Part shown: piece by piece, positions 1 through 47,632 of the stretch
Layout of the letters: each line of letters opens with the position of its first letter
How positions within the stretch are numbered: position 1 is the stretch's first letter
Source of the DNA: Dehalococcoidia bacterium
GTDB taxonomy: Bacteria; Chloroflexota; Dehalococcoidia; UBA6926
DNA: 64,000 nucleotides
Assembly (NCBI GenBank): GCA_034422835.1
Contig: DAOUJJ010000013.1
Span: forward strand, 12,618 to 76,617
Direction: 5' to 3'
Notes under the pieces: generated by a model
What the model was told of the DNA's origin: nothing
The model's input: the letters and a program-made list of their open reading frames with translations, nothing else
Databases searched by the model: none
Made by a program: the position numbers and the translations under genes

Positions 1-765
1 GGAATGACATATGACTTCTATTTGCAGGGGTCATACCGAAACGATACGAACATTCGCGGCGACAGCGATGTGGACATCGTCTTAGAGATGACGTCTACCT
101 TCAACTATGACACGACCTCACTCACTGATTGGGATCGACGCAGGGTAGAGGATTCGTTTGTTCCTGCCCAACACGAGTGGAACGCATTCAGACGCGAAGC
201 CCTGAAGACTCTCAGCTCAGAATTCGGCGACGATATGGTCGCCCAAGGCAACAAGTGCATTAAGTTGAAGAAAGACCCACCGAGACTGGCTGCGGATGTT
301 GTCGTGTGCAATGACCACCGTAAGTACGTCAACGCGTACCAGTACATTGAAGGCGTGGCCCTCTACGCCTTAAGGGACAAGCGATGGATCGTCAACTACC
401 CGAAACTGTATTACCGGAATGGTGCGGATAAAAGCAGGAGTACCAGTGACCGCTTCAAGCGGACGGTTCGGATGTTCAAGAATGCGAGGAATCGGCTCGT
501 CACGGACGGACGGATCAGCGAAGAACTTGCGCCGTCATACTTCATTGAGTGCCTCGTGTACAACGCGCCGGATTCTGCCTTCAAGACCGGATTTCAGGAC
601 ACGTATTGCGACATCGTCAACTGGATAGTTCAGAACGATCTGGGCGGACTCATGTGCCAGAACGGCCAAATGCCTCTCTTCGGTCCCACGCCCGAACAAT
701 GGTCTCTGGCGGATGCCAAAGCTCTCGGAAGCGCCCTCGTGACCCTGTGGAACAATTGGGGATAA
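1..765 (+). CDS. CBASS cGAS/DncV-like nucleotidyltransferase (SMODS domain), 5'-truncated by window edge
   Basis: GS-x10-DVD motif (GSYRNDTNIRGDSDVDIV) plus downstream acidic AADVVVCND, the pattern of SMODS/CD-NTase active sites. The ORF is open to the window start. A 2TM effector follows 8 nt downstream. Confidence 0.7.
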   Translation, partial: GMTYDFYLQGSYRNDTNIRGDSDVDIVLEMTSTFNYDTTSLTDWDRRRVEDSFVPAQHEWNAFRREALKTLSSEFGDDMVAQGNKCIKLKKDPPRLAADVVVCNDHRKYVNAYQYIEGVALYALRDKRWIVNYPKLYYRNGADKSRSTSDRFKRTVRMFKNARNRLVTDGRISEELAPSYFIECLVYNAPDSAFKTGFQDTYCDIVNWIVQNDLGGLMCQNGQMPLFGPTPEQWSLADAKALGSALVTLWNNWG

Positions 766-772
766 GCGGGCC

Positions 773-1357
773 TTGATGCACTCATACGACCTTGAGGGGC
801 GTGGACGGATATACGCGGGGCTGGCGATCCTCAGTGTGACGCTGGTGTGGCTGTTGGATTGGAGCTTGAACTTCACGGATGTTGACCCGCCATGGTGGTT
901 CAGCGCTCCCTCTGTTGCGGGCCTCTACACGATGCTCTACTGGGTATTCGACCGTCATGTTTGGCGGTGGAGGTTCCTACGCCGACTCGGCCTGCTATCG
1001 GTGCCTGACTTGAACGGCGCATGGACGGGTGAAATCGATTCCTCTTTCGGCGGGGAGGGCACGAACAGAGACATCAAGGTGAACATCAGGCAAAGGTGGG
1101 CGTCGATATTGATTACTCTCCAAGCCGGTGAGTCGATTTCGCGCAGCACAATGGCGGCCGTAGCGGCCCGGGACACGGACAGCCCCGAACTGACGTATAC
1201 ATACTTGAACGAACCCCATGGAAGGGCGGCTGACACCATGCAAATGCATCGGGGCACATGTACGCTCCGGCTGGCCGGCGACCGGCTTGAGGGCAACTAC
1301 TACACGGGCCGGGGCAGAGGCACGGTAGGAGAATTAAAGCTGAAGAGGAATGCGTGA
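773..1357 (+). CDS. CBASS effector, 2TM + beta-strand-rich C-terminal domain (Cap15 / S-2TMbeta-like)
   Basis: Two N-terminal hydrophobic helices (IYAGLAILSVTLVWLLDWSL; WWFSAPSVAGLYTMLYWVF) followed by a ~110-aa region of alternating beta-like pattern. It lies immediately after the SMODS gene on the same strand. Confidence 0.6.
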   Translation: MMHSYDLEGRGRIYAGLAILSVTLVWLLDWSLNFTDVDPPWWFSAPSVAGLYTMLYWVFDRHVWRWRFLRRLGLLSVPDLNGAWTGEIDSSFGGEGTNRDIKVNIRQRWASILITLQAGESISRSTMAAVAARDTDSPELTYTYLNEPHGRAADTMQMHRGTCTLRLAGDRLEGNYYTGRGRGTVGELKLKRNA

Positions 1358-1430
1358 ACACATATAGCGGCTACCATCGGATTCCTGCGTACCCCTACAA
1401 CGAACTCAGGCCAAACCTAGGAGCCAAGCC

Positions 1431-4400
1431 ATGCAGATAGTTGAAGGCAACCTGGTCTACTCCGCGACGGATCTTGTCGCATTTCTTGAATGTGGACATC
1501 TTTCAAATCTGGAGCGGTCCGCAGCACTAGGTGCTCTCACCAAGCCTAACCAGATCGACCCCATACTCGATCGCATTGCCGAACGAGGAGAGCGCCACGA
1601 GAAACTCTTTTTGGAGTCGCTACACGCTGAGCCCGTCCAAATCTTAGAAGTTAGCTTGGATGAGACTCTCCCGAGTGGAAAGCGCCTGCTGAAAGGTTGT
1701 GACGACACCCTTGGTGCGATGCGTAGTGGTGTAGACACGATATATCAGGCTGTGCTCTTTGATGGCCGGCGTTTAGGTTATGCGGATTTCCTGAGGCGTG
1801 TTGAACGACCTAGCGACTTGGGACCATGGAGCTACGAAGTCTGGGATACGAAGCTCGCAAGGCACGCAAAGGCATCAGCCGTACTTCAGCTCTGCATGTA
1901 TTCCGAGATGCTAGGCGCGGTTCAAGGTGTGACGCCAGTTGAAATGCACTTGGCTCTCGGTGGGGCACAGCAGGAGAAGGTTTCCTTCCGGGTGGCCAAC
2001 TATGCCGCCTACTATAGGCTTGTGCGGAGAGATTTTGAGTCTAGCCTCGATCTGCCGCTAGCCAATCCATTGCAGACCACTCCTGAGCCAGTGGAGCACT
2101 GCGCTATGTGTCGGTGGAGTTCTCAATGTCAGGCTAAATGGCGTCAGGAAGACGACCTAACCCTCGTTGCAAATCTGTCATCTCGACAGCGCCGTCTACT
2201 TCGCGGTGCTGGAGTGAATACCCGCACGGGACTCGCAGAAGACCTGCCTCAGCGATTAGATGGTATGGGTGAAGAGGTACTAGGTAGGCTACATCTTCAG
2301 GCTAAGATCCAAGTTCGAGGTGAACGGGATGGTATGACCATATCGGAGCACATTGAACCACCGCGGGATCGCGATGGGGCATTGATCTCGAATCACGGAC
2401 TACTGATGCTCCCTGAGCCATCCACTGGTGACCTTTTCTTCGACATTGAGGGTGACCCATTCTTCAGTTCCAAAGATGTGGATGGGATCGATTACCTATT
2501 CGGAGTTATGGAGGTAATCGAGAAAGATTCATTTGACCATCCGGAATTCCACTCATTTTGGGCGATCGAAGATGAAACGGTAACCCAGCAAGGTGAGCGA
2601 AGGGCGTTTGAGACTCTTGTCGACTTCTTCATGGACCGTCTTGAGGCAGACCCAAAGCTGCACATCTATCATTACGCACCTTACGAACCGACCGCCATGA
2701 AGAGGCTCGCCGGTCGTTACGGAACTCGCGAGAACGAGATTGACCAGCTACTGCGCGGAGGAGTCTTCGTCGACCTGTATCGCGCCGTACGGCAAGGAAT
2801 TCGTGCCTCCGTTGAGAGTTACTCTCTCAAGCACTTAGAACCACTTTACAATTTCAGGCGAGAGATTGATCTCCGGGATGCTGGGACAAGCATTGTTGAG
2901 TTCGAAACGTGGCTTGAACTCGGTGATGGAGAACAGCGAACAGAACTACTTGCGGACATCGAGAGCTATAACCGTGATGACTGTCTTTCGATCGTCTACT
3001 TGAGAAAGTGGCTTGAAGGTCAGCGTATCGAATTGGCCAACGAATTGGGGCACGCCCTTCCTAGACCAAGCGTAATTCAACCAGAAGAGAGGGAGGATAG
3101 TGAAACTCAAAATGAAGTTAGTCGAGTAGTATCTGCACTGATTGATGACTTGCCTGAATCGACCGACTCCATGACGGATGTCCAAAGAGGGCGATGGTTG
3201 TTAGCTCAACTGCTCAATTGGCACCGACGTGAGGACAGATCTCTCTGGTGGAGGTACTTTTATGTTGTCAAGGAGCTGACTGATGCTGAACGTCGAGAGG
3301 AACCAGACTGTTTAGGCGAGTTAACCTTCGATAAATCTTGGTCAGACCCCGCGCCAAATTCCCGGTCAAACATTTATCGCTTCAGTTTTCAGCCGCAGGA
3401 ACATGACATCCGGATCGGGATCAGGCCACTTGACCCTGAGATTGAAAAAACTGTTGGTGAAGTTGTAAGCCTGGACGATGAGCATGGCACCATTGATATC
3501 AAACGAGCCAAGTCACAGCCTGCCCCAACACCAACTTCATTAGTTCCGTTCGAGTATGTCAATCCTAGACCTAAGCCAGAGAGTTTGCTCAGTATAGCCA
3601 ACTGGGTGCTAACAAACGACATGAGTGCATCAGGAAGATTCCAGGTCGCCCGCGATTTATTGGCCAGAAGGCCTCCTCGTTTTGCGAGGCATGTTGAAGG
3701 AGAGCGCCTGCGCAAAGACACCGAGGACGCTCAGGACGCAGCACGACGGCTAGTCAAGGAATTGAATAGGAGTTACCTCGCGATCCAAGGCCCACCGGGT
3801 TCTGGCAAGAGCACGGTGGGAGCAACAATGATCGTCGATCTCCTAGAAGATGGTCAGCGCATAGGCGTTACAGCCAATAGCCACAAGGTCATTGGCGAGT
3901 TGCTCACGAAGGTTGCTAAGGAAGCCAAATCCCGGTCTCTCGCCACAAGAATCGGACAACGCTCGACCGATGCTCCAACATTCAGTGGCGCTATTCATCT
4001 CAGAAACAATGATGATGCACGAAATGCACTTGCTAACGGTGAAGCAAATGTCGTTGGTGGAACTTCTTGGCTCTGGTCGAGACAAGATATGGCAGACTCC
4101 ATCGATATCCTATTCGTCGACGAAGCTGGGCAAATGTCGCTAGCCGATGTGCTTGCAGCATCTCCTAGCGCAAAGAACGTTGTATTGCTCGGCGATCCGC
4201 AGCAGCTCGATCAGCCTTTACAGGGAACTCACCCACCGGGAGCGGAGGGGTCAGCCCTAGCGCATGTGCTCGACGGGGCTCAGGTGATGCCCGACGACCT
4301 CGGCCTATTCCTAGATGGAACTTGGCGGCTTCACCCACAAATCACAGCCTATACGTCCGAAGTGTTTTACGAAGGTCGTCTACATTCTCACGATGGGCGC

Positions 4401-4925
4401 GAACTGCTTGAACTGAAGGGTAAACCTCCACTGAATGGAACCGGCTTAAGATTCATCCCGGTGACCCATACAGCGCAATCAAGCGAGTCCATTGAAGAGG
4501 TGTCGCAAATATCTCAATTGCTCCGTCAGTTGCTGGAATCAAATGCAGCGTACCGAGATGCGAATGCAGCGACTCATCGCCTTGATAGCGATGGCGTGCT
4601 ATTGATTACGCCATACAACGATCAGGTTCGGGCTCTAAGCAAGGAACTGCCCAATTTCCGAATCGGGACTGTCGACAAATTTCAAGGGCAAGAGGCCCCG
4701 ATCTCAATTTACTCCATGGCAACGAGTTCCATAGATGAGGCACCCCGAGGCATGGAATTCCTCTACAGCCTTAATCGGCTGAACGTTGCAACTAGCCGGG
4801 CACAGTGCCTAGCTGTCGTCGTAGCCAGTCCTGAACTCTTGAGGGTACGCTGCCGCACTCCTCGCCAAATGCGCCTGGCAAATGCTCTCGCAATGTTTGT
4901 AGAGATGGCGGACAAGCAAGACTAG
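1431..4925 (+). CDS. Dna2/Nhi-like fusion: Cas4/AddB-type Fe-S PD-(D/E)xK nuclease + RNase-H-like (YprB/TM0106-type) exonuclease + SF1B (AAA_11/AAA_12, Upf1-like) helicase
   Basis: N-terminus: C21 plus C-x2-C-x5-C (EHCAMCRWSSQC), D...EVWDTK...QLCMY nuclease motifs, DIEGDPFF. C-terminus: Walker A GPPGSGKST, DEAGQ, LLGDPQQL, KFQGQE, NVATSRA helicase motifs. A/T-richer codon usage than the flanks. RBS TAGGAG precedes the ATG. Confidence 0.8.
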   Translation: MQIVEGNLVYSATDLVAFLECGHLSNLERSAALGALTKPNQIDPILDRIAERGERHEKLFLESLHAEPVQILEVSLDETLPSGKRLLKGCDDTLGAMRSGVDTIYQAVLFDGRRLGYADFLRRVERPSDLGPWSYEVWDTKLARHAKASAVLQLCMYSEMLGAVQGVTPVEMHLALGGAQQEKVSFRVANYAAYYRLVRRDFESSLDLPLANPLQTTPEPVEHCAMCRWSSQCQAKWRQEDDLTLVANLSSRQRRLLRGAGVNTRTGLAEDLPQRLDGMGEEVLGRLHLQAKIQVRGERDGMTISEHIEPPRDRDGALISNHGLLMLPEPSTGDLFFDIEGDPFFSSKDVDGIDYLFGVMEVIEKDSFDHPEFHSFWAIEDETVTQQGERRAFETLVDFFMDRLEADPKLHIYHYAPYEPTAMKRLAGRYGTRENEIDQLLRGGVFVDLYRAVRQGIRASVESYSLKHLEPLYNFRREIDLRDAGTSIVEFETWLELGDGEQRTELLADIESYNRDDCLSIVYLRKWLEGQRIELANELGHALPRPSVIQPEEREDSETQNEVSRVVSALIDDLPESTDSMTDVQRGRWLLAQLLNWHRREDRSLWWRYFYVVKELTDAERREEPDCLGELTFDKSWSDPAPNSRSNIYRFSFQPQEHDIRIGIRPLDPEIEKTVGEVVSLDDEHGTIDIKRAKSQPAPTPTSLVPFEYVNPRPKPESLLSIANWVLTNDMSASGRFQVARDLLARRPPRFARHVEGERLRKDTEDAQDAARRLVKELNRSYLAIQGPPGSGKSTVGATMIVDLLEDGQRIGVTANSHKVIGELLTKVAKEAKSRSLATRIGQRSTDAPTFSGAIHLRNNDDARNALANGEANVVGGTSWLWSRQDMADSIDILFVDEAGQMSLADVLAASPSAKNVVLLGDPQQLDQPLQGTHPPGAEGSALAHVLDGAQVMPDDLGLFLDGTWRLHPQITAYTSEVFYEGRLHSHDGRELLELKGKPPLNGTGLRFIPVTHTAQSSESIEEVSQISQLLRQLLESNAAYRDANAATHRLDSDGVLLITPYNDQVRALSKELPNFRIGTVDKFQGQEAPISIYSMATSSIDEAPRGMEFLYSLNRLNVATSRAQCLAVVVASPELLRVRCRTPRQMRLANALAMFVEMADKQD

Positions 4926-5151
4926 TTGACGGCGTTAAGGGAAATGCAAACAAACAAATTCGAGCGGAGGGGAGCGGCCTAGCTCCTAGTAAGTTGCCGA
5001 GCACAGGCACCCTTACAAGATCGGCATTTGCCCGGATGCTCGCAAGTGTCCAACTGTTCACACTCATTTCTGCCTCTCACAACGCCACCTCAAACCGAAA
5101 CGTTCGCAGTATCATCCCGTTAGGCCCATATCCCACCGCTGCAAAACAACA

Positions 5152-5187
5152 AGACTGGGGAGTGGCGGTTCCGCCACTCCCCAGTCT
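5152..5187. terminator. Bidirectional rho-independent terminator hairpin between the convergent Nhi-like gene and proX
   Basis: Perfect inverted repeat AGACTGGGGAGTGGCGG-ttcc-GCCACTCCCCAGTCT. On the minus strand it is followed by TTGTTGTTTT. Confidence 0.6.
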
Positions 5188-5246
5188 TCACACCGTCTTT
5201 ACAGCCAACGTTCCGGTATCAAACCGGTAGGCGCTGTGAGATTCCT

Positions 5247-17419: not shown

Positions 17420-19138
17420 TTACTCTTCGCCGCTACAGAGCTTGATTGCCTCCCTATGGATTGCTTCGGCGCGAGCGTGTATGAATGATTCATAGTCGGA
17501 TTTGATCTTCGCACCCCGTGCCTCTTCATCAGCTATTTCTGAATACCCCCCAACGCTTAGACTGTCGAACGGTATGATGTGTGTTTCTAATCGGCTACGA
17601 ATTTGATCCTCACCAAGAGGTGCACGTTCGGCACGCTCCCGCAGATAGGCCAACGGCTCTTTGGCGGAAATTCTCCGGTTGGTGTTCCATGTGATTAGGG
17701 CACAATTCAGAGCGAGACTGATATCGCCCTCATCGATCAAACCCACATTGTCAAGTAGGGCTTCCGGGAATAGATGATGGTATTCCCTTCTAGCAAGCGA
17801 ATCAGGAGTGGCTGGCGAGTCATCGGCAAAATCTCTGCCTCCAGCTCGTATAGAGACAGCCAGTATCGCCCGAGCCAAGGTACTGCGGAGTCGTGGCCAT
17901 GGAGCCCGTTCCAGTTCCTCAATCTCGGCAATCGGGAATCTGTCGTTGTCCAGTATCGGAATCAAGGCATCAGATTCTCCATCTACAAGCCTGGCCTTTA
18001 GACCACGATGATCTTGGAGTGCAGCAGTAGCGGCCGCGCGGTCGTATCTGTCTGTAAAGAAGGAGCGCCACAAGTATTGACGCAATAGCAAACGCGCTTC
18101 GCCGTGAGCATCTAGGGATTGTGGCATCTGACTCCAGATTGAGGCGATTATCGGCACCACAGCTACCGTAGGCAGACGATCACGGTCGTAAATGTGTTCC
18201 TCACTCAGAAACCTGATCGCGCCCCCGACACCTCTTTCAATCGATTCCCATTCTCTGGAAAGCCGCCGCATGTCCAACTGTAAAAAGGAGGCTTCCGTGG
18301 GGGGCCGGTTTTCTCTGAGAGCAGCAACTCGGAGAACAAGATCCGAGATATTGACATATCGCTCGGCCTCTGGAACGGCTGAACGCAGAGACCCTTCAAG
18401 TTCGTGTAGGGATTGTCCTGTTGCCGCCTCCATTTGGGCTACGACAATATCAAATGCAGATAGGCGGACAGAAGTTGTATTCATCTTGATGAACACATCA
18501 ATTGCTTCTCCAGGAGGCGTGCCCACTGGCAATTCTAGGTAGGGTAGATTCGCCTCCCTAAGGGCGTTTCGGTGTATTGCCAATTCTCGTTCTAGGGAGC
18601 GACTTTCTTCGACAGAACCCGTAGCTAGGTCGCACCAAGTGCCAATTTCGGTAGAATCAACTGCCGGACTAAGAATACGTATTGGTACTAGTCCTCGTCT
18701 CCGCTGTTCCTGAGGCTGATCGGCCCACAGAGGGTACCTCTGGCCCCCTCTGTGCCACCTGCCATAACTTCTAACTAACGATGGATCGTCCGCATCAGGA
18801 CGTAGCACAGCGAAATAGGTTCGATTCGCGTAACCGTCGTTGAGTGCCTTCCATATCGCTGTCAATCGTTGTTGGCCGTCCAGCAGGTTCTCAGTTGTGC
18901 GTTCTGTTTGGGGAGGAGCCCCCGCTATAGTGCGGCTTATAAACGGCTGTTTATCTCCTATAGCAAGTACCAGGGCGGCACCGATTGGCCGACCACGCAG
19001 GATGGTGTCTAGGAGTGTTTCGACATCGCCATGTCCCCAACTTTCCAGCCTTTGAAACCTTGGGAGCGTTAGTTGTCCAGTTCGAACGCGCCCTAGCCAG
19101 TCGGGAAGTCGCCGATTTCTAGCTTCCATTGACATTGT
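17420..19138 (-). CDS. GmrSD-family type IV (modification-dependent) restriction endonuclease, DUF262 + DUF1524
   Basis: DUF262 motif DGQQRLTA. C-terminal His-Me/HNH-like DUF1524 motifs (EYHHLFP…HIIP). Start taken at MSMEARNRR, preceded on the mRNA by GGAAGC with ~6-nt spacing; it overlaps the thrS 3' end by ~20 nt. A/T-richer than the flanks. Confidence 0.75.
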   Translation of the reverse strand, partial: TMSMEARNRRLPDWLGRVRTGQLTLPRFQRLESWGHGDVETLLDTILRGRPIGAALVLAIGDKQPFISRTIAGAPPQTERTTENLLDGQQRLTAIWKALNDGYANRTYFAVLRPDADDPSLVRSYGRWHRGGQRYPLWADQPQEQRRRGLVPIRILSPAVDSTEIGTWCDLATGSVEESRSLERELAIHRNALREANLPYLELPVGTPPGEAIDVFIKMNTTSVRLSAFDIVVAQMEAATGQSLHELEGSLRSAVPEAERYVNISDLVLRVAALRENRPPTEASFLQLDMRRLSREWESIERGVGGAIRFLSEEHIYDRDRLPTVAVVPIIASIWSQMPQSLDAHGEARLLLRQYLWRSFFTDRYDRAAATAALQDHRGLKARLVDGESDALIPILDNDRFPIAEIEELERAPWPRLRSTLARAILAVSIRAGGRDFADDSPATPDSLARREYHHLFPEALLDNVGLIDEGDISLALNCALITWNTNRRISAKEPLAYLRERAERAPLGEDQIRSRLETHIIPFDSLSVGGYSEIADEEARGAKIKSDYESFIHARAEAIHREAIKLCSGEE

Positions 19139-20921
19139 CTGACCCCCTCCCCGCCATCTCCTCCAGCACCCGCTCCATGAACTCCCCAACGGGCATCGCG
19201 CCCAGATTCTCGCTGTTCTCACGGCGACGCACAGCCACCGCACCCGACTCCGCCTCGCGGTCGCCAACGACCAGCATGTAGGGCACGTGCCTGGTCTGCG
19301 CCTCACGGATCTTCGCGTTCATACGCTCATTGCGGTCATCAATCTCAACGCGCAGCCCGACGGCGTGCAGCTGCTCCTGCACCTGCTGCGCGTAAGGGAT
19401 ATGCCGGTCTGCAATAGGGATAAGCGTCGCCTGCACCGGCGCGAGCCACACCGGGAACGCCCCCGCGTTGTGCTCCAACAGCACACCCAAAAACCGCTCC
19501 AGCGAGCCGAGGATCGCGCGATGGATCAGCACTGGCCGCTCGCGCGTGTTGTCCTCCGTCACGTATTCAAGGTCGAACCGCTCCGGCAGATTGAAGTCCA
19601 GCTGGAACGTGCTCAACTGCCACTCCCGCCGCAGCGCGTCCTGCGAGAACAGGTCGATTTTCGGCCCGTAGAACGCGCCCTCATTGGGTATCTCCTCAAA
19701 GTCGACGTCGGCAAGCGTTAGCGCCTCGCGAAGCGCCTGCTCAGCCTGATCCCAGACCTCATCGCTCCCCACGCGTTTCTCCGGTCGCAGCGACAGCGTA
19801 TAACGCGGCTCGTTCAGACCGAATGCCTGGTACACGTCCCGCATCATGCGGATCAGCGACGAGAATTCGTCCTGTATTTGGTCGAGTCGGCAGAAGATGT
19901 GGGCGTCGTCCTGCGAGAAGCTCCGTACGCGCGTCAACCCGTGTGTGACGCCGGAGCGTTCATTGCGATGCAGCCGCCCAAAGTCCGCCATACGCAACGG
20001 CAGCGCGCGGTATGAGTGCAGCTGGGATTGGTACACGATGCAGTGGCCGGGGCAGTTCATCGGCTTGACCCCGTACTCGATCTCATCCGACTGCGTCAGG
20101 TACATATTCTCCAGGTAGTTGTCGTAATGCCCCGACTGTTTCCAGAGGTCCGTCAAGAATATCTGCGGCGTGATGACCTCTTGGTAGCCGTACTTGTCGT
20201 ACAACTCCCGGATGAAATCGACCATCAGGTTGTAGACCGTCGCGCCCTTTGGCAGGAAGAACGGGCTGGCTGGCGCGATCGGGTCGAAGAAGAACAGGTC
20301 AAGCTCGCGCCCTAGCCGGCGGTGGTCCCGCCGCTCCGCCTCCGCCAACCGCTCCAGGTGCGCGTCAAGCTCCTCTTGTGTTTCGAACAGCGCCCCGTAG
20401 ATGCGCTGCAGCTGCGGATTGCTCTCATCGCCGCGCCAATACGCTCCGGCCACCCGCGTCAGCGTGAACGCCCCCGTCTTGTCCGTCGACTCCGCGTGCG
20501 GCCCCTGGCACAGATCCGTGAACTCGCGATGACTGTAGATGGAAACCGTGTCGTCCGTCAGGCTCTCGATGATCTCCACCTTGAAAGGCTGATCCGCGAA
20601 CCGCGCAAGTCCCTCGTCGCGCGGCATCTCACTCGCGACGAACGGCGCAGCAGACTTGGCGCTCTCCCGCATCCGCGCCTCGATCTCCGGCAGATCGTCC
20701 GTGGATAGCGTGCGCGGCAGCAGGAAGTCGTAGTAGAAACCGTCCTCGATGGGCGGCCCGATGCCCAGCTTCGCCTCGGGGAACATGGACAGCACGGCCT
20801 CCGCCATCATGTGCGCCGCGGAATGCCGCATCCGGATGAGCGTGTCGTTCTCGCCTGCGTAGCGCTCCTCAAGCGCGCTTCCGTCCGCGAGTGATTCTGC
20901 TTCGTGTTCCTGGTGTGACAT
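19119..20921 (-). CDS. thrS: Threonyl-tRNA synthetase
   Basis: ThrRS editing and class II catalytic motifs (HRHSAAHM…, FRLHRNERSG…). Confidence 0.9.
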   Translation of the reverse strand: MSHQEHEAESLADGSALEERYAGENDTLIRMRHSAAHMMAEAVLSMFPEAKLGIGPPIEDGFYYDFLLPRTLSTDDLPEIEARMRESAKSAAPFVASEMPRDEGLARFADQPFKVEIIESLTDDTVSIYSHREFTDLCQGPHAESTDKTGAFTLTRVAGAYWRGDESNPQLQRIYGALFETQEELDAHLERLAEAERRDHRRLGRELDLFFFDPIAPASPFFLPKGATVYNLMVDFIRELYDKYGYQEVITPQIFLTDLWKQSGHYDNYLENMYLTQSDEIEYGVKPMNCPGHCIVYQSQLHSYRALPLRMADFGRLHRNERSGVTHGLTRVRSFSQDDAHIFCRLDQIQDEFSSLIRMMRDVYQAFGLNEPRYTLSLRPEKRVGSDEVWDQAEQALREALTLADVDFEEIPNEGAFYGPKIDLFSQDALRREWQLSTFQLDFNLPERFDLEYVTEDNTRERPVLIHRAILGSLERFLGVLLEHNAGAFPVWLAPVQATLIPIADRHIPYAQQVQEQLHAVGLRVEIDDRNERMNAKIREAQTRHVPYMLVVGDREAESGAVAVRRRENSENLGAMPVGEFMERVLEEMAGRGSDNVNGS

Positions 20922-22514: not shown

Positions 22515-22656
22515 ACTCCGGTTCGCCAGGCAACTCTTGTTATTCGAGGGTTGCGCGTCCGCACGGACTCTCTACACTGGTGCCCATGAGAGCCTTGCCC
22601 AACCTCTTCGACGTGATGGCCATATACGCCCTGTATCAGGGCAGGTGACGGATACG

Positions 22657-23190
22657 ATGTGGATAAGAAGAGTTGCTTTGCTGGGCGCAACCCTGCTGGC
22701 GTTGTCCTTCTTCTCGCTTCTCGCAGCCTGTGATGACGGAGATATATCCACACCTACTGTGATACCTACCCCGGAACCAACCCTGCCTTATAACCTTGAG
22801 GCCGAAAGGTCGCAGCTTGCCCACTCCAAGCACGCTTGGGAGCGCGACGGCCCGTACGACTATACCTTTGAGGCTGAGGCTTCGTGCAATTGTCCAGCAC
22901 CAAGAACGCCCTTCAGGATAACGGTCAGAGTGGGAGCCATTGAGTCAATGACGAATCTCAACACCGGCGAAGTGGTAACCGATGTACCCTGGCCCTTTCA
23001 GACTATCCACGAATTGTTTGATGAAATTGGATACTATTTGCATCGTGATCCGCCAGCCGCGTATATTTCCGTAGCATACCATCCTCGGTTGCGTTATCCC
23101 GTGTACATTGGTGTAGACCGCTCAGCGGACATGATTGATGATGAATATCGTTTGGTAATTACCTCGTTCAAGCCATTAGACCGTTCTTAG
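22657..23190 (+). CDS. Hypothetical lipoprotein
   Basis: Signal peptide plus lipobox LLAAC. The track ORF starts at 22537 but the upstream part overlaps a repeat. Confidence 0.45.
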   Translation: MWIRRVALLGATLLALSFFSLLAACDDGDISTPTVIPTPEPTLPYNLEAERSQLAHSKHAWERDGPYDYTFEAEASCNCPAPRTPFRITVRVGAIESMTNLNTGEVVTDVPWPFQTIHELFDEIGYYLHRDPPAAYISVAYHPRLRYPVYIGVDRSADMIDDEYRLVITSFKPLDRS

Positions 23191-29629: not shown

Positions 29630-30000
29630 CACGGTCAGTGACTACGCCTAGATGCAGGCGTGGGGCTTTCCGCGTATTGCATGCACACTCGCGGCAAGCC
29701 CCGCTGTAACAAAGCGCAGTCGGGATAAAGCGAGCGGATAACGGAGAGCGCGCGGCTCTCCACAGTTATGGAGACCAACCGGACAAGCAAGCGCGGGAAA
29801 GTCAGCACACCCTGCCGATCCAACAACCCTCACTCCGGCAGGCGCCCCTGACTCCCACACACGGGGAGGAGCAGATGCACTCACAAGAACCCTGGCAGTC
29901 GCGAAGCCCCACGGGCAGCGTGAATAAATCTTTGATTTCATCTACACTTGGAAAGACGGGACGCAAAGGTCCACATCACAGTTACGGAAGGGGGCTTCCT

Positions 30001-33000
30001 GTGAAGCGCAAAGCACTAGTTATCCTGACGGTCGCGATCCTCGCGTTCGCCATGATCCCGGCCCTCGGGGCGGGCGCGGCGGTTGGCACGGTCAAGATCG
30101 TTACCCCGGATCAGCTGGCCAACCCCACGGGGAAGACCGGCTCGGCCTTTGAAAAGCTCAATGCCGCGGACTACGTCTCCGACAAGACCGGTATGGAGAC
30201 TAGCTTAGAGGATGCCGGTGGCACCCTTTACGCCGTTATCGATGATAATGACGGCGTTTCCAACGCTTTGACTGACTACTACGCCTACTTCACCGATGCA
30301 AGGCCAGGCACCGCAGATGGTGGTGGTAACGCCTACAACATTGATCCGGGCACGACAACGCCATCCACCACGAACGGCATAGTCGCTGATTGGGTTACAG
30401 ATACTGTTGACCCTGTTGCCATGGGGGATCTTGTTGCCCGTACGGACGATACGGCCACCACTGACGTCAATGAGTCTGACGGCGCCGATGACCTCGAGAT
30501 TGGCGATAGGAACCGGAATGGTGAGATCGACTCTGGCGACCTTCTGATTGAGATTGGGTACTTCGTGCCGCCTGTCGTAGACGATCCGGATACTACGGAT
30601 AATGAGCAAGAGGACCTGCAGTTCGAAGCCGTGCGAACCGTGAATGTCGGAAACGCGTTCCAGGATGCCAGCAGAAACGGCAAGGAAGCCTTCCTTAACT
30701 TGAACACGATTCCCGCTTTCCCTGCGGCACGTGACGCTGCAGATCAGTTGGACACCACTGAGGTTGGTGCCTTGCGCATCAGGTTCGCATCTGCGGGTGT
30801 TAACGAACTCAAGTATGGCGATGATGCGGCTGTGGAACTTCGAGGCAAGAGCCGGGTGCAAGTCCGGAGTTCGTCCGGCGATCCGATTCGGATCACCGTG
30901 AGAGAGAAGAATCTTGTCGAACTCGCCAAGCAGAAAGCCGGGGTTAATCACGCAGCGCTGACTGCGACGGACACTGACGGAAACTCCACGACCGACTCAC
31001 GTGATTCCGGCGTTTTCGTCGGCATGTTTGGCGTGATTCGCAATGACTTCAAGGAAGCGATTGCAACGTGGACGCCGACTCCCACAGACTCTGCGCAGTC
31101 CGAGGAAATAACTGTGATTGCCGCAGGCGGTACACCTGCCGCCGACGAAGTTCTGCCAGTCGAAGCGGAGACTGATTCTGCAAGCGATAATTTCGAGTTG
31201 GCGATGACGGAGATCACGCTTCCGGGCGTCAACAAGGATAACGTTCTCAAGGCTAATACCACAGAAACGCGTAACGACGATGTTACCGTAACGATCAAGG
31301 ATCCAGAGCGTAATGATACGCCCGATGCTGCTGCCGACCCGCCTGTGGTTGATAAGGCAGACGCTGACGTTGATGATGAGATAAGAGTCACTGCTGTAAC
31401 TGTTGGAGATCCAGATCCGCAAACAGGTGCGGTGGTCATCACAGTGGCCACGAAGCATGGAGCCGACGCTACTACAGCCACCGATGGTGACACTCTAGAA
31501 GATGACATATTCGTCCTTACCTACACGACCACTGATCTCAATAACAACATCAACGACCTGATTGCAGCCGTTGCCGCGACAGACAAGGACGCAGATCGGG
31601 ATGAGGCGTTCTACGATTTCTGCCAGGGCACAACCGAAGGCAAGGAGTGCGCCGAGAGGGACAAGTTGGAGGCGGCCCTGAAGGCTCATGTTACAAATCT
31701 GGGCCTTTCATCTGCGACCGATCTTACGGGTGATGATGCCAGCGCGCTGGTGAACTCGCTCGTCGGCGCGGAGCACGGCGATACCCTCACCGTGAGCTAC
31801 GCAGATGCCGACCCCAGCAGCACGCGCACAGATACTGCTGAGGTGGACCTGAACGCCCCGACGATCGGCTCGCTTGATCCTGCAAACAACTCCTACGTCG
31901 ATAACGATGACTTCTCGGTGTTCTTCAGCGTGACGGATCCGGATTCGGGCATCCCGGAGGACGCCCATGATGCGACTGAACAGACCATCAGAGCCGGCAT
32001 GGCTTACGTTGAAGAGGTAGTCACGTTTGGCGAAGGCGACGCTGATCCTGTTTCCAACTTGGCAAACGGTGACGAAGCGGTTCTCGATGTGGATGACACC
32101 ATCCAGGATGGCGAGCGCTACGATCTTGAGATTGACGTGACGCAAGCCGCGGAAGCCGCCGAAGGTGATGAGGATACCGACGCGAAGACGGTGACGGTCC
32201 GGGTCAAGATTACGGCTTATGACCTTGCCCGAAACTTCGTCACAAAGACGTACGAGTTCGTGATCGATAACATTGATCCCGTCCTTGAGGACGCCATCAC
32301 CGGATGGGGCATCTCAAGCAGCGCGACAGCACTGCGCGCCAACGGCGATGAGGGCGCATACGTCTTGGTGGAACAGCAGAGGGACAGAATTGTTCTCGTG
32401 TTCGATGACGCAATCCAGGGCGATGCCCTGCTGGAACAGAACATCCAGGTGTCCGGCACCAGCGTCTCAAGCATCGAGTGGCTCGATAACACCGGCAGCA
32501 ACGTCATCAGCGTCGGCGATGCAGACATGTCAGAGACTGCCGGTGACCTTGACTTCAATGCCAAGACTCGGACAAGTGCCGATGCCCCTGATGTTGTCAG
32601 GGAGTTGGGCCTCCGGACAGAAACCAATGGTCAGGATGCGCGGCACCTCCTGTTCCTGACGCTTGAGGCTGATCTCGCTACGGATGCCCGCCCAACCATC
32701 GAGATTGATGGCGGCGACCTGACCGACCTCGCAGGAAACCTGAATAAGAGCGACCACGAGAGGCGCCCGGATGACCGCCTTGCGCCGATCTTCAAGATCA
32801 GTGTTGAGGAAGCCTTGAGCAACGACACCTTCAACGTGACGGTGGAAACCTCTGAGGACTTGAAGCGCAGGCCTACCGCGTCCATCTCCAATGGCAGAAT
32901 TCTTCGCCCCATCACCCTGAAGGCAGGCACCGGAAACACGTGGGCGCTCTCCACTGACCGGAAGGGACTTAACCTCGTTGCCCGTGAGGGCAGGCAGGAC

Positions 33001-34122
33001 GGTGTCTACGAGGTCACGGTTGAGGGCAGTGACGAAATTGGCAATGAGGCAATGGCCACAAGCGGCAAGTGGGAGTTTGACACCCAAGCCAACAACGGCG
33101 TCCTGCCCAACCGTGGTGGCGTGGCCGCTGATGACGGCACCAAGGCAAAGGCTGATCTCGCCCAGAAGATCGAGAGGAACGAAGTCGTCTTCCTGAACCT
33201 GCTCTTCACCGCTGAGACCGGTGAGTACACCGGCGACACCAAGAAGAAGGTCAACATCAGCAGCCTGAGCCTTGATACCCTGGCGGATGATGCGATTGAT
33301 TCCAAGAACAAGCTCGTAGCCAGTCCCACGGTCGAGAGCACCTTGGACGTGGATGCCGGTTCGGCGCAGAGCTCGGACGGCATCAAGCACGTCATCGCCC
33401 TCGCGGACCTCGCGATTGGCAGCTACCGCCTGAACGTGGACTACGCTGACGAGGCGGGCAACACGGGCAAGTTCGGCTACGTGTTCAAGATCACCGCCCC
33501 GGCCCCCGTAGAGATCGCCGTGGTACCGGGCTGGTCCTTGGTGTCCATCCCTGGCACCCCGGTTGACTCGAGCGTCGCTGGTGTCTTCGAAGGCTCGTCG
33601 GTGACGGATGTGTGGAGCCTGGATAACGAGACCAAGCGCTGGCAGTACGCTGGCAAGGATGCGAACGGCGAATGGGTGGAAGGCACCCTGCCGCAGATCG
33701 TGGCCGGCCGCGCGTACTTCGTCCGCAGCACCACCTTCGACCCGATCAAGGTCCTGACCGAGCGGTTCAGCCCGGAGACCACGCCGTCGCAGTACGTCGT
33801 GACCAGCGGCTGGAACGGCATCGGCTACACCCCCGCGGGCAGCGAGACGGCGATCAGCGTCGACGGCTACCTGAGTTCGCTCGGGGCCAGCGGATGGGGC
33901 ATGATCCGGATGTGGAACGCGGACGCGACCCCGCCGCAGTACGAGACCTACTTCGCCAGCGGCGCGATGACCGACGGCTTCCCGGACGGTGACGGCAACG
34001 CTGCCTGCGCAACGCCAACGTCCGATTGCGACGCTGACAACATTGCTGCTGGTGTAGCGAAGGTTGAGAAGGGCAAGGGCTACCTGCTCTTCGCGACCCG
34101 CAACGGAGTCATCGGCGGCTAA
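30001..34122 (+). CDS. Giant secreted acidic cell-surface protein with dockerin/EF-hand-like Ca-binding loops (S-layer/adhesin-like)
   Basis: GTG start after SD GGAAGGGGG. Signal peptide VKRKALVILTVAILAFAMIPALGAGAA. D/T/E-rich throughout, DRNRNGEIDSGDL-type loops; 1373 aa. Confidence 0.6.
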   Translation: MKRKALVILTVAILAFAMIPALGAGAAVGTVKIVTPDQLANPTGKTGSAFEKLNAADYVSDKTGMETSLEDAGGTLYAVIDDNDGVSNALTDYYAYFTDARPGTADGGGNAYNIDPGTTTPSTTNGIVADWVTDTVDPVAMGDLVARTDDTATTDVNESDGADDLEIGDRNRNGEIDSGDLLIEIGYFVPPVVDDPDTTDNEQEDLQFEAVRTVNVGNAFQDASRNGKEAFLNLNTIPAFPAARDAADQLDTTEVGALRIRFASAGVNELKYGDDAAVELRGKSRVQVRSSSGDPIRITVREKNLVELAKQKAGVNHAALTATDTDGNSTTDSRDSGVFVGMFGVIRNDFKEAIATWTPTPTDSAQSEEITVIAAGGTPAADEVLPVEAETDSASDNFELAMTEITLPGVNKDNVLKANTTETRNDDVTVTIKDPERNDTPDAAADPPVVDKADADVDDEIRVTAVTVGDPDPQTGAVVITVATKHGADATTATDGDTLEDDIFVLTYTTTDLNNNINDLIAAVAATDKDADRDEAFYDFCQGTTEGKECAERDKLEAALKAHVTNLGLSSATDLTGDDASALVNSLVGAEHGDTLTVSYADADPSSTRTDTAEVDLNAPTIGSLDPANNSYVDNDDFSVFFSVTDPDSGIPEDAHDATEQTIRAGMAYVEEVVTFGEGDADPVSNLANGDEAVLDVDDTIQDGERYDLEIDVTQAAEAAEGDEDTDAKTVTVRVKITAYDLARNFVTKTYEFVIDNIDPVLEDAITGWGISSSATALRANGDEGAYVLVEQQRDRIVLVFDDAIQGDALLEQNIQVSGTSVSSIEWLDNTGSNVISVGDADMSETAGDLDFNAKTRTSADAPDVVRELGLRTETNGQDARHLLFLTLEADLATDARPTIEIDGGDLTDLAGNLNKSDHERRPDDRLAPIFKISVEEALSNDTFNVTVETSEDLKRRPTASISNGRILRPITLKAGTGNTWALSTDRKGLNLVAREGRQDGVYEVTVEGSDEIGNEAMATSGKWEFDTQANNGVLPNRGGVAADDGTKAKADLAQKIERNEVVFLNLLFTAETGEYTGDTKKKVNISSLSLDTLADDAIDSKNKLVASPTVESTLDVDAGSAQSSDGIKHVIALADLAIGSYRLNVDYADEAGNTGKFGYVFKITAPAPVEIAVVPGWSLVSIPGTPVDSSVAGVFEGSSVTDVWSLDNETKRWQYAGKDANGEWVEGTLPQIVAGRAYFVRSTTFDPIKVLTERFSPETTPSQYVVTSGWNGIGYTPAGSETAISVDGYLSSLGASGWGMIRMWNADATPPQYETYFASGAMTDGFPDGDGNAACATPTSDCDADNIAAGVAKVEKGKGYLLFATRNGVIGG

Positions 34123-40603: not shown

Positions 40604-40674
40604 CTATGATTATACCTGCTTGTCTCTACAGGCCCTACGAACATTTGCCCGTTTTGTGCCATAGTGTAAGTGTC

Positions 40675-46846: not shown

Positions 46847-47632
46847 TTAACCCCACCAATCAAAATCGCGCCGGGCGAACTCTTGAGATATGAGTAGATC
46901 TGGTTGCTCATAGAGCAGCGCGTCGATTTCTTCCCTCAGACTCCCGTGCATATATTCCCACATTACTGGAGATAACCGTCTCTCCAGACGCATGTGGAGT
47001 AGAAGTTCCACTTCATCGTTATTGGAATAGAAGCCGGCAAGGTCGATCGAACGCAGGCTATAGTTGTGGCGTTCTGCATAATCCAAGAGAGATTCGTTTG
47101 GCCTAATCCACTCTCCTACTTCAATCATCCGGTTAAAGATCCTCCAGAGGTACTCACCGTAATTCACATAACCGCCGACCGATTCCCCGTTGTATTCAAG
47201 AAAGTCTCGGAATGGCATTGTGTCATATTGCCCGGCGGCAGAAAGGCGGTAAGCAAAAAAGGCATCCCAGTACCCATCCTTGATGAGCGCCTGATACGGA
47301 CCAGTTTGGCTCGCCCACTGTTCACTAGTGGCGAGGTAGCCGTTCCACACTCGTTCGAGTTCATTTGGATCAAGGAAAGTTGGCCCGGGGATAGGGGTTG
47401 GAGTGTTTTGAGGCAATTGCGTGGGTAGGGGAGTTTGCGCTGCTATTGGAGTTGGTGACACGGGAAGTGGCGTAAGCGTTGGTGTTGCGGTTGGAGTTGC
47501 TGAAGGAACCGGCGTATAGACCGGTACGGTTGTGGCAGGCTCAGCAGATTGCGAGCCCCGTGAGCAACCAACAACCAGCGCCCCGGTACACAGGATCAGG
47601 ATGACCACTAGGGAGATAGCTAAAACACGCAC
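46847..47632 (-). CDS. Hypothetical lipoprotein with Pro/Thr-rich linker
   Basis: Signal peptide plus lipobox LVVGCS, PT-rich linker, ~170-aa C-terminal domain of unknown function. Confidence 0.5.
   Translation of the reverse strand: MRVLAISLVVILILCTGALVVGCSRGSQSAEPATTVPVYTPVPSATPTATPTLTPLPVSPTPIAAQTPLPTQLPQNTPTPIPGPTFLDPNELERVWNGYLATSEQWASQTGPYQALIKDGYWDAFFAYRLSAAGQYDTMPFRDFLEYNGESVGGYVNYGEYLWRIFNRMIEVGEWIRPNESLLDYAERHNYSLRSIDLAGFYSNNDEVELLLHMRLERRLSPVMWEYMHGSLREEIDALLYEQPDLLISQEFARRDFDWWG

Follow-up and report, generated by a model that had tools for sequence, protein, structure and literature searches.

Bad (WP_053413574), from Geobacillus stearothermophilus, carries an Fe-S cluster and has both ssDNA endonuclease and 5'-3' helicase activities; its central domain is unexplained, and its authors left the physiological function open (PMC7430649). 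Eukaryotic Dna2 (PDB 5EAN) places an Fe-S RecB nuclease N-terminal to an SF1B motor on a single chain, and AddB has the same iron-staple Fe-S nuclease (PMC7430649). AddAB and RecBCD also combine two nuclease activities with a motor and act on DNA ends, but they are multi-subunit enzymes with SF1A motors and Chi recognition, encoded by housekeeping genes with conserved synteny. Nhi (SERP2475, staphylococci) is a single chain of 606 aa in which an N-terminal PD-(D/E)xK nuclease, HsdR-like and without Fe-S, precedes a Dda-like SF1 helicase of the DUF2075/PF09848 type; its C-terminus is glyoxalase-like (bioRxiv 10.1101/776245). Mokosh uses a nuclease of the PLD family (MkoB, or the MkoC N-terminus), and in Type II Mokosh a nuclease is likewise fused to an Upf1-like helicase. 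For the TM0106 family, the literature searched gave unrelated matches only, and no characterised member was found in it.

Here we describe a member of that family encoded in a 64,000-nucleotide stretch of a Dehalococcoidia contig (the window), where its gene lies beside a CBASS pair at one edge of a defence island comprising Type I restriction-modification (R-M), TIR, PIN, HicB and CBASS genes. The open reading frame runs exactly as the sequence-only reading had placed it, and the relevant features are as follows.

4..765, + strand: CD-NTase (CBASS cyclase); PADLOC cyclase PDLC00788, E 6e-90
773..1357, + strand: Cap15 two-TM CBASS effector; Pfam Cap15_CD_rec E 4e-33, Cap15_TM E 1e-10, PADLOC 2TM effector E 9e-62
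1358..1430, + strand: spacer of 73 nt between cap15 and the nuclease-helicase gene, with the RBS GGAG at 1420-1423
1431..4925, + strand: nuclease-helicase, 1164 aa
1431..2330, + strand (aa 1-300): module 1, Fe-S 'iron-staple' RecB/Cas4-type PD-(D/E)xK nuclease; TIGR03491, invariant residues, Foldseek alignment to the Dna2 nuclease
2418..3020, + strand (aa 330-530): module 2, DEDDy 3'-5' exonuclease fold; D338, E340, D448, Y513 and D517, with H414/E419
3021..3710, + strand (aa 531-760): linker ahead of the motor; helical bundle and small beta-barrel by AlphaFold secondary structure
3711..4925, + strand (aa 761-1164): module 3, SF1B Upf1/Dna2-like helicase; Pfam AAA_11/AAA_30/AAA_12, PDB sequence matches, Foldseek
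5151..5188, - strand: terminator hairpin of the convergent opuA operon; perfect 17-bp stem, T-tract on the minus strand

Three modules on one polypeptide

The protein belongs to the helicase-fused form of the TM0106 family and does not differ from it. The NCBIfam profile TIGR03491 ('TM0106 family RecB-like putative nuclease') was matched at aa 11-528, scoring 255.5 bits (cutoff 97.45), and the match covers profile positions 2-462 of 462, that is, the whole profile, which upholds the family assignment made earlier. In public annotation the TM0106 name already stands on homologues of the same length that are 37-67% identical.

Profile matches and invariant residues agree with the proposed anatomy of Fe-S nuclease, exonuclease and SF1B helicase. 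In the N-terminal module, the Fe-S cysteines (C21 and C224-x2-C227-x5-C233) and the RecB-nuclease residues D119, D139-x-K141 and Q153-x3-Y157 are all invariant in an alignment of 40 homologous sequences spanning 37-95% identity; the Pfam PDDEXK_1 match to this module is weak by itself (E 5.5e-3). The central module is matched more strongly by PolB exonucleases than by Cap18, whose likeness is generic to the DEDD fold. AlphaFold gives a confident fold, with a long helix at aa 501-539 and beta-barrel strands at aa 632-705, and the linker motif WHRRE...WW (H598, R600, E601, W606, W607) is invariant in the 40-sequence alignment. The helicase module is complete, as had been claimed, since AAA_11, AAA_30 and AAA_12 are matched and the SF1B motifs are all invariant (Walker A G787-K793, Walker B D897-E898, GD922..Q925, R966, T1080-Q1087 and R1116..R1123); its PDB sequence matches are Sen1, Upf1, Ighmbp2 and Dna2. 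The catalytic residues, whose possible degeneracy the sequence-only reading had named as a reason to abandon its proposal, are intact.

Over the full length, the closest structure found by Foldseek is that of Dna2 (5EAN, E 8e-26, at a sequence identity of 13%), in keeping with the Dna2-like logic first proposed. Dna2 itself is without the approximately 200-aa DEDDy exonuclease that is set here between nuclease and motor, and no Pfam Dna2 domain was matched at E ≤ 0.01, so that at the sequence level the protein is not a member of that family. The likeness to Bad, which we compared through its published description and motif spacing, extends over a three-part architecture of about 1200 aa. The chain opens with a RecB nuclease bearing four Fe-S cysteines, continues with a conserved central domain that is predicted to contain a coiled coil, and ends in an SF1B helicase; Walker A follows nuclease motif III at a spacing of 665 aa in Bad and 654 aa here (PMC7430649). 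Sporadic distribution and restriction-modification genes as neighbours are also common to both (PMC7430649).

The earlier description of the protein as Nhi-like is valid as an analogy, Nhi being likewise a single-chain nuclease-helicase that is found in defence islands and on plasmids with an HGT-like distribution, as is the present family (bioRxiv 10.1101/776245). Membership in Nhi does not hold. PF09848 scores 20 bits, under its 24-bit cutoff, and only at aa 782-903, and the protein is 1164 aa long against about 600 aa for Nhi, its nuclease is of the Fe-S type, and it carries a DEDDy exonuclease, a module that is absent from Nhi (bioRxiv 10.1101/776245). Mokosh was rejected as well: MkoA (E 9.5e-42) is the strongest PADLOC match of the helicase domain, followed by MkoC (5.5e-26), but both lie wholly within the helicase half (best stretch aa 963-1151), and no PLD domain is present. 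Unlike AddAB and RecBCD, the protein is one chain with an SF1B motor, and its second nuclease belongs to the DEDD type, not to the RecB type.

The CBASS pair and the defence island

On the source contig (L013) the island reads HsdR-PIN-TIR-HsdS-HicB-HsdM, then CD-NTase-Cap15-nuclease-helicase, then opuA. The CD-NTase, whose 5' end is clipped by the window edge, is 292 aa when complete on the contig and belongs to a 5,071-nt block conserved with a second locus, L015. The nuclease-helicase gene starts 73 nt after cap15 with its own RBS, 7 nt upstream of the ATG, as had been noted from the letters. A scan of the spacer and its comparison with L015 revealed no promoter-like or terminator-like site and no conserved regulatory element, conservation being poor except for the RBS and start region; co-transcription with the CBASS genes is therefore possible. 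The hairpin that physically bounds the block on the right, 226 nt beyond the stop codon, is real (dG -35.6 kcal/mol, z -7.5), but the earlier claim of a strong bidirectional terminator at 5152-5187 goes further than the data, since the T-tract lies on the minus strand only and the hairpin formally terminates the convergent opuA operon.

The position directly after cap15 raises the question of whether the protein serves this CBASS specifically, as an accessory or a second effector that, for example, is activated by its cyclic-nucleotide signal or regulates it. The sequence-only reading had offered an unusual CBASS accessory as one of two alternatives, and we now reject it as highly improbable. 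A CD-NTase or Cap15 adjoins the homologue in only 2 of 99 loci, even when a sensitive phmmer search is included, which is not the recurrent co-occurrence with CD-NTase operons by which a Cap gene is recognised. In the closest relatives of this CBASS (pairs 68-74% identical), the slot after cap15 is variable, and is either occupied by a gene for a 1257-aa PIN-TPR-GreABC protein or empty. The nuclease-helicase showed no domain of the kinds that sense cyclic nucleotides (SAVED, CARF, STING or Cap15-type receptor), and its resemblance to Cap18 falls below the PolB exonuclease match. Its third-position GC content (GC3) also sets it apart from the CBASS genes. The deviant composition reported earlier was confirmed, with a GC3 of 0.512 versus 0.714 ± 0.092 for 40 other ORFs of the window.

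A link to the neighbouring R-M system is a second possibility, which we regard as improbable. Type I R-M genes lie directly upstream of the cassette both on the source contig and in L015; bad adjoins a Type III-like Mod methyltransferase gene in Geobacilli (PMC7430649). Among the homologues, a full-length Type III Res ORF overlaps the start of the nuclease-helicase by 4 bp in L061, in L041 a TmtA-like protein comes after the Type III Res, and a methyltransferase lies downstream of the homologue in Sphingobium. Against such a tie, the R-M operon of the window is on the opposite strand, with the CBASS genes intervening, and the R-M proteins of L013 and L015 are only 26-35% identical, whereas the nuclease-helicases are 75% identical. 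The partners also change by locus, being Type III, Shango, GajB-like, McrC, Ubl-E1-E2 or CBASS genes, and many loci have none of these.

Neighbours and distribution of the homologues

All-against-all clustering of 723 neighbour ORFs from 99 loci revealed no conserved partner gene, the largest cluster comprising 6 loci; the 311-aa proteins upstream of the homologues in L021 and L025 are likewise unrelated to each other. Conserved synteny with the housekeeping flank was rejected too. L001 and L005 share with the window only an OpuA paralogue, 24-46% identical and located on the opposite flank, and no other flank gene common to them and the window was found.

The neighbours are enriched in defence genes. 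The ORFs within two positions of a homologue, called by a crude longest-ORF rule, matched 172 PADLOC families per 147 ORFs in one set and 250 per 143 ORFs in a second, while the control of 39 ordinary ORFs from the window matched 6; this amounts to 1.2-1.7 versus 0.15 families per ORF in what is an aggregate, approximate test. Matches to the 'mad3' model were discounted because the same model matched 3 of the 39 control ORFs; those to UvrD-like or methyltransferase proteins may be housekeeping paralogues, and variable regions may be over-represented in the metagenomes and plasmids sampled. At E<1e-60 there are at least 21 distinct neighbours, and the control has none below 1e-50. They include Type III Res, Type IIG RM, SngB/SngC, DarG, DrmD, HerA, JetA, DpdE, ZorD, PD-T4-6, PDC-M16A/B and PDC-S06/S08. 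In 10 of 13 annotated contexts that we inspected one by one, defence genes lie within 10 kb, and several contexts have a WYL (BrxR/CapW-type) regulator upstream of the homologue in divergent orientation.

The family is large and patchily distributed. The nuclease-helicase has more than 7,000 relatives, the N-terminal module alone forms 7,501 clusters at 50% identity, and at least six phyla are represented, among them Chloroflexota, Proteobacteria, Planctomycetota and Gemmatimonadota. Homologues occur in 69 plasmid records, 26 of which are conjugative; carriers of plasmid copies include Rhizobium, Sphingobium and Pseudomonas luteola. None was found in 50,697 phage genomes, and among the 2.9 M contigs of IMG/VR about 7 carry the gene in full length; a phage origin or a phage replication gene was rejected on these figures.

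These neighbourhood data fit the other alternative of the sequence-only reading, a stand-alone defence gene in an island. We consider it somewhat probable that the nuclease-helicase is a stand-alone, horizontally mobile DNA-degrading enzyme, most likely serving anti-phage or anti-plasmid defence and carried as cargo at the edge of the island. The sole evidence for its defence role is gene context, that is, guilt by association, which makes it a good but unproven candidate. Several observations count against defence. Some homologues adjoin housekeeping genes (PFK, peptidase M29, isochorismatase) or repair genes (AddAB, SbcCD-like). In many homologues GC3 resembles that of the host, and their full-length identity is 65-69% across many genomes, which would also suit a conserved cellular function.

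We have therefore weighed a repair or recombination enzyme, either a Dna2 counterpart or an AddAB/RecBCD substitute, that would carry out end resection or flap and fork processing with a single chain and would often travel on mobile elements, standing beside defence genes incidentally. This we judge unlikely. The homologues are not consistently found in repair or replication contexts, the 99 loci showing neither conserved synteny nor a repair-gene partner; their patchy distribution includes plasmids, and strong defence matches are several-fold richer among their neighbours than in the control. In the hotspot formed by Type I R-M and CBASS genes, the nuclease-helicase is interchangeable with the PIN-TPR-GreABC gene, and its composition is foreign within the window.

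A candidate mechanism for degrading DNA from its ends

For the preferred reading, a defence enzyme that degrades DNA, the likely polarities follow from homology to Dna2, Bad and PolB exonucleases. On the model of Dna2 and Bad, the protein would take up a free 5' single-stranded end or a ss/ds junction and pass it by way of the Fe-S RecB-type nuclease to the SF1B motor, which would travel 5'->3' on that strand at the expense of ATP and unwind the duplex. The Fe-S nuclease would cut the strand tracked by the motor, and the central PolB-type DEDDy exonuclease would digest the opposite, 3'-ended strand. With motor and both nucleases on one polypeptide, foreign DNA that is linear, nicked or replicating could be shredded in both strands, a degradation comparable to that by two-subunit AddAB or three-subunit RecBCD. 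We infer this division of labour between the two nucleases, and also that dependence on DNA ends would serve as the self/non-self rule; a further point against the defence role is that neither a sensor nor an element for telling self from non-self was found.

More tentatively, the helicase-fused TM0106 family, possibly including Bad, might be a very widespread and unlisted single-gene immune system, in which one chain with two nucleases and a 5'-3' motor attacks foreign DNA at ends or junctions and shreds its two strands. Unrelated defence operons (Type III R-M, Shango, GajB-like, McrBC, ubiquitin-like cassettes and CBASS) may repeatedly have taken it up as their final gene, and it would there serve them all as a second stage that degrades the DNA ends made by first-line systems. 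PADLOC v2 (2023) does not list the family, and the literature searched did not show it among validated systems, which counts against the defence reading. If the defence reading is true, thousands of sequence clusters in at least six phyla would join the catalogue of bacterial immune systems, bacterial Dna2-like enzymes would gain a biological role, and the central region of this architecture would be assigned a fold and a likely activity, that of a PolB-type 3'-5' exonuclease. The protein may also be viewed as a compact, natural single-chain DNA-end processor with two nucleases. As its three active sites are now named, the corresponding point mutants can be made at once.

Three catalytic modules and their closest relatives

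The 1164-aa open reading frame was placed as the sequence-only reading had it, with these genes and signal around it:

4-765, + strand, CD-NTase gene, 5′ end truncated at the window edge
773-1357, + strand, Cap15 effector gene
1431-4925, + strand, nuclease-helicase gene
5151-5188, hairpin

The earlier three-module interpretation (RecB-like nuclease, exonuclease and SF1B helicase) is correct. The NCBIfam profile TIGR03491 ('TM0106 family RecB-like putative nuclease') is matched in its entirety at residues 11-528 (255 bits, cutoff 97), and Pfam detects RNase_H_2 at residues 335-528 (E 1e-20), the SF1B helicase domains AAA_11, AAA_30 and AAA_12 within residues 766-1133, and a weak PDDEXK_1 match. 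In an alignment of 40 homologues from several phyla (37-95% identity), all three active sites are intact.

Table. Residues invariant in the 40-homologue alignment
Fe-S cluster: C21, C224, C227, C233
RecB nuclease: D119, D139, K141, Q153, Y157
DEDDy exonuclease: D338, E340, H414, E419, D448, Y513, D517
SF1B helicase: G787...K793, E898, D922, Q925, R966, T1080-Q1087, R1116...R1123

The AlphaFold model of the full-length protein is confident (pLDDT 82.3, pTM 0.72), and the structure search that had been proposed gave Dna2 (5EAN) as the best PDB match (E 8e-26), aligned across nuclease and helicase, followed by Ighmbp2, Upf1, Sen1, ZNFX1 and nsp13. The protein had also been called Nhi-like. Nhi has 606 residues, an HsdR-like nuclease, a Dda-like DUF2075 (PF09848) helicase and a glyoxalase-like tail (bioRxiv 10.1101/776245); since PF09848 falls below its cutoff here, the protein does not belong to Nhi. 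Mokosh was likewise rejected, because the PADLOC MkoA and MkoC matches are confined to the helicase and the PLD nuclease is absent. By architecture, and as judged from its published description, the closest characterised enzyme is Bad of Geobacillus stearothermophilus, an Fe-S cluster-containing ssDNA endonuclease and 5′-3′ translocase and helicase that prefers 5′ overhang junctions, whose gene adjoins a Type III-like methyltransferase and whose central conserved domain was 'completely unknown' to its authors (PMC7430649). Nuclease motif III and Walker A are 665 aa apart in Bad (PMC7430649) and 654 aa apart in the present protein.

By analogy with Dna2 and Bad, a 5′ ssDNA end or junction may be fed via the Fe-S nuclease to the SF1B motor, which would run 5′ to 3′ and unwind the duplex while the Fe-S nuclease cuts the tracked strand. 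The PolB-type exonuclease would digest the complementary 3′-ended strand, so that linear, nicked or replicating DNA could be destroyed on both strands by a single ATP-driven polypeptide. The protein showed no sensor domain, and the only self/non-self rule that we propose is that an intact circular chromosome would offer no entry point.

The protein is an ordinary representative of a very large family that already has a name but is uncharacterised. At E<1e-10 it has over 7,000 relatives; the best 120 of these are all about 1165 aa long and 65-69% identical, and several already carry the TM0106 family name. With a 37%-identical gammaproteobacterial homologue as query, this architecture was also recovered from Proteobacteria, the PVC group and Gemmatimonadota. 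The N-terminal 560 residues matched 7,501 clusters (50% identity), including 1,794 at E<=1e-30, and the best matches are mostly 1110-1190 aa long and hence the helicase-fused form. Family members occur in 69 plasmid records (26 conjugative), in none of 50,697 GenBank phage genomes, and as about seven full-length copies, several at contig edges, among 2.9 million IMG/VR contigs.

The cassette and the CBASS pair

On the source contig (L013), HsdR, PIN, a CAP12-type TIR gene, HsdS, HicB and HsdM lie to the left of the window, then come CD-NTase, Cap15 and the nuclease-helicase, and opuA, nitroreductase and IF3/L35/L20 follow; a defence island thus ends with the nuclease-helicase gene. In L015, where the homologue is 75% identical, the layout from HsdM through the three genes recurs, with different genes downstream. 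The sole substantial DNA alignment of the two loci covers 5,071 nt at 70% identity, from the first CD-NTase codon to the end of the nuclease-helicase gene, and their restriction-modification proteins are just 26-35% identical. The three genes have been inherited together, as a single cassette, in these two genomes.

The 73-nt distance from cap15 and the gene's own ribosome-binding site (GGAG, 7 nt ahead of the ATG) were borne out, and neither a sigma-70-like promoter nor a terminator-like site was found in this spacer. The hairpin, described earlier as a strong bidirectional terminator, is real (perfect 17-bp stem, dG -35.6 kcal/mol, z = -7.5) but not demonstrably bidirectional: only the minus strand carries a T-tract, which makes the hairpin formally the terminator of the convergent opuA operon. 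The deviant composition also holds (GC3 0.512 versus 0.714 ± 0.092 for the window's 40 other ORFs), unlike the host-like CBASS genes (0.68 and 0.72).

Could the enzyme be a CBASS accessory? A sensitive phmmer search covered 99 independent loci with a homologue, taken from 12 genomes, 80 metagenome contigs, plasmids and look-ups; it found CD-NTase and Cap15 in the source contig and L015 only. Three further CD-NTase/Cap15 pairs, 74%, 70% and 68% identical to the window's, are likewise placed divergently from a Type I hsdM; in two of them cap15 is followed by a gene for a 1257-aa PIN-TPR-GreABC protein, whereas the third has no comparable gene in this slot. With CBASS in 2 of 99 loci and variable content in the cap15 slot, an accessory role is unsupported as a family property; a hotspot of Type I restriction-modification and CBASS carries several interchangeable cargo genes, among them the nuclease-helicase.

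The PIN-TPR-GreABC protein (PF20698; L108 8604-12377, L110 8606-12379), which replaces the nuclease-helicase after cap15, is an uncharacterised defence-island candidate in its own right. The CD-NTase scores 250 bits against NF053871 ('DS2_2_antiphage anti-phage nucleotidyltransferase'), under the 350-bit cutoff, and has relatives at 60-81% identity in more than 100 clusters. When the Type I operons beside the CBASS pairs were compared (L013 1-8328, L015 1-8248 and the upstream halves of L108, L110 and L111, the loci of the closest CBASS relatives), small cargo between hsdR, hsdS and hsdM was found to differ per genome: PIN, TIR and HicB; DUF1828, DUF6978, DUF4238 and an NTase pair; HepT/MNT and UvrD; or DUF2442. 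Such cargo looks like a recurrent hotspot, always paired with a divergent CD-NTase-Cap15. Elsewhere in the window we noted:

17420-19306, - strand, 628-aa ORF, GmrSD_N domain (E 1.5e-19), type IV restriction-like, of foreign composition (GC3 0.494, window mean 0.71)
22537-23190, + strand, low-GC3 ORF, DUF6174
29875-34122, + strand, very large ORF (1415 aa), no Pfam match at E<=1e-4
40606-43512, + strand, very large ORF (968 aa), no Pfam match at E<=1e-4, low GC3 (0.542)
46847-47632, - strand, low-GC3 ORF

The GmrSD_N gene, about 12.5 kb from the nuclease-helicase with housekeeping genes between, is likely a second acquired defence gene.

Neighbours of the homologues

All-against-all clustering of 723 neighbour ORFs revealed no fixed partner gene, the largest cluster being present in only 6 loci, and the immediate neighbours (n=147) match 126 Pfam families, each seen at most three times. 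Defence genes are, all the same, strikingly frequent among these neighbours. Within two positions, PADLOC at E<=1e-10 gave 172 families for 147 ORFs and 250 for 143, against 6 families, none below 1e-50, for 39 ordinary window ORFs in the identical scan; according to a review, predicted anti-phage genes make up about 1.5% of bacterial genes (PMC13434031). At E<1e-60 there are at least 21 distinct neighbour proteins, including Type III Res, Type IIG RM, Shango SngB and SngC, DarG, DISARM DrmD, HerA, JetA, DpdE, ZorD, PD-T4-6, PDC-M16A/B and PDC-S06/S08. The neighbourhood survey suggested earlier also found defence genes within 10 kb in 10 of 13 individually inspected annotated contexts, for example a WYL/BrxR-like regulator with GmrSD, a multiubiquitin-E2-E1-DUF6527 cassette, SNF2 with VapBC and HNH, DUF2357, or HEPN with DUF3883; WYL regulators lie divergently upstream in several. 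The homologue is repeatedly the terminal ORF of unrelated defence operons, on the same strand with tight spacing or a 4-bp overlap.

Table. Genes preceding the nuclease-helicase, by homologue locus
L061: Type III Res
L041: Type III Res, then TmtA-like protein
L024: DrmD-like helicase, then TmtA-like protein
L058: GajB-like UvrD helicase
L065: SngB-SngC
L089: McrC
L013, L015: CBASS

There are counter-examples, with PFK, peptidase M29 or isochorismatase upstream, or AddAB in the vicinity. The main rival, a repair enzyme, is in our view improbable. With the gene last in its island and its homologues in defence-rich surroundings, a stand-alone defence-island gene, one of the two alternatives in the sequence-only reading, is the best-supported explanation and somewhat more probable than all others combined. 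The finding is unsurprising in kind, yet it marks a large gap in the catalogue of defence systems, one that can be put to the test since the active-site residues are now named.

Several neighbours deserve separate mention. The second-largest neighbour cluster consists of WYL-domain (BrxR/CapW-like) regulators about 328 aa long (5 loci, including L113 6950-7939 (-), L114 6913-7896 (-), L021 6214-7200 and L112), and on two sphingomonad plasmids they lie immediately upstream and divergent. The TmtA-like protein (1034 aa, a Tiamat-like GHKL ATPase with an 'ELLQNAEDA' motif; L024 4867-7968, L041 4900-8001) ends 11 nt before the nuclease-helicase in L024; in L041 it runs 4 bp into the start of that gene. 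The copies from these unrelated loci are 32% identical over their full length (E 9e-127), and the SF2 enzyme upstream differs (DrmD-like in L024, Type III Res in L041); SF2 enzyme, TmtA-like protein and nuclease-helicase may form a three-gene sub-system. On a Phenylobacterium plasmid (L025 4600-7957), a multiubiquitin/E2/ThiF-E1/DUF6527 cassette and a 311-aa hypothetical protein precede the nuclease-helicase, and DUF6527 occurs twice among the immediate neighbours of homologues.
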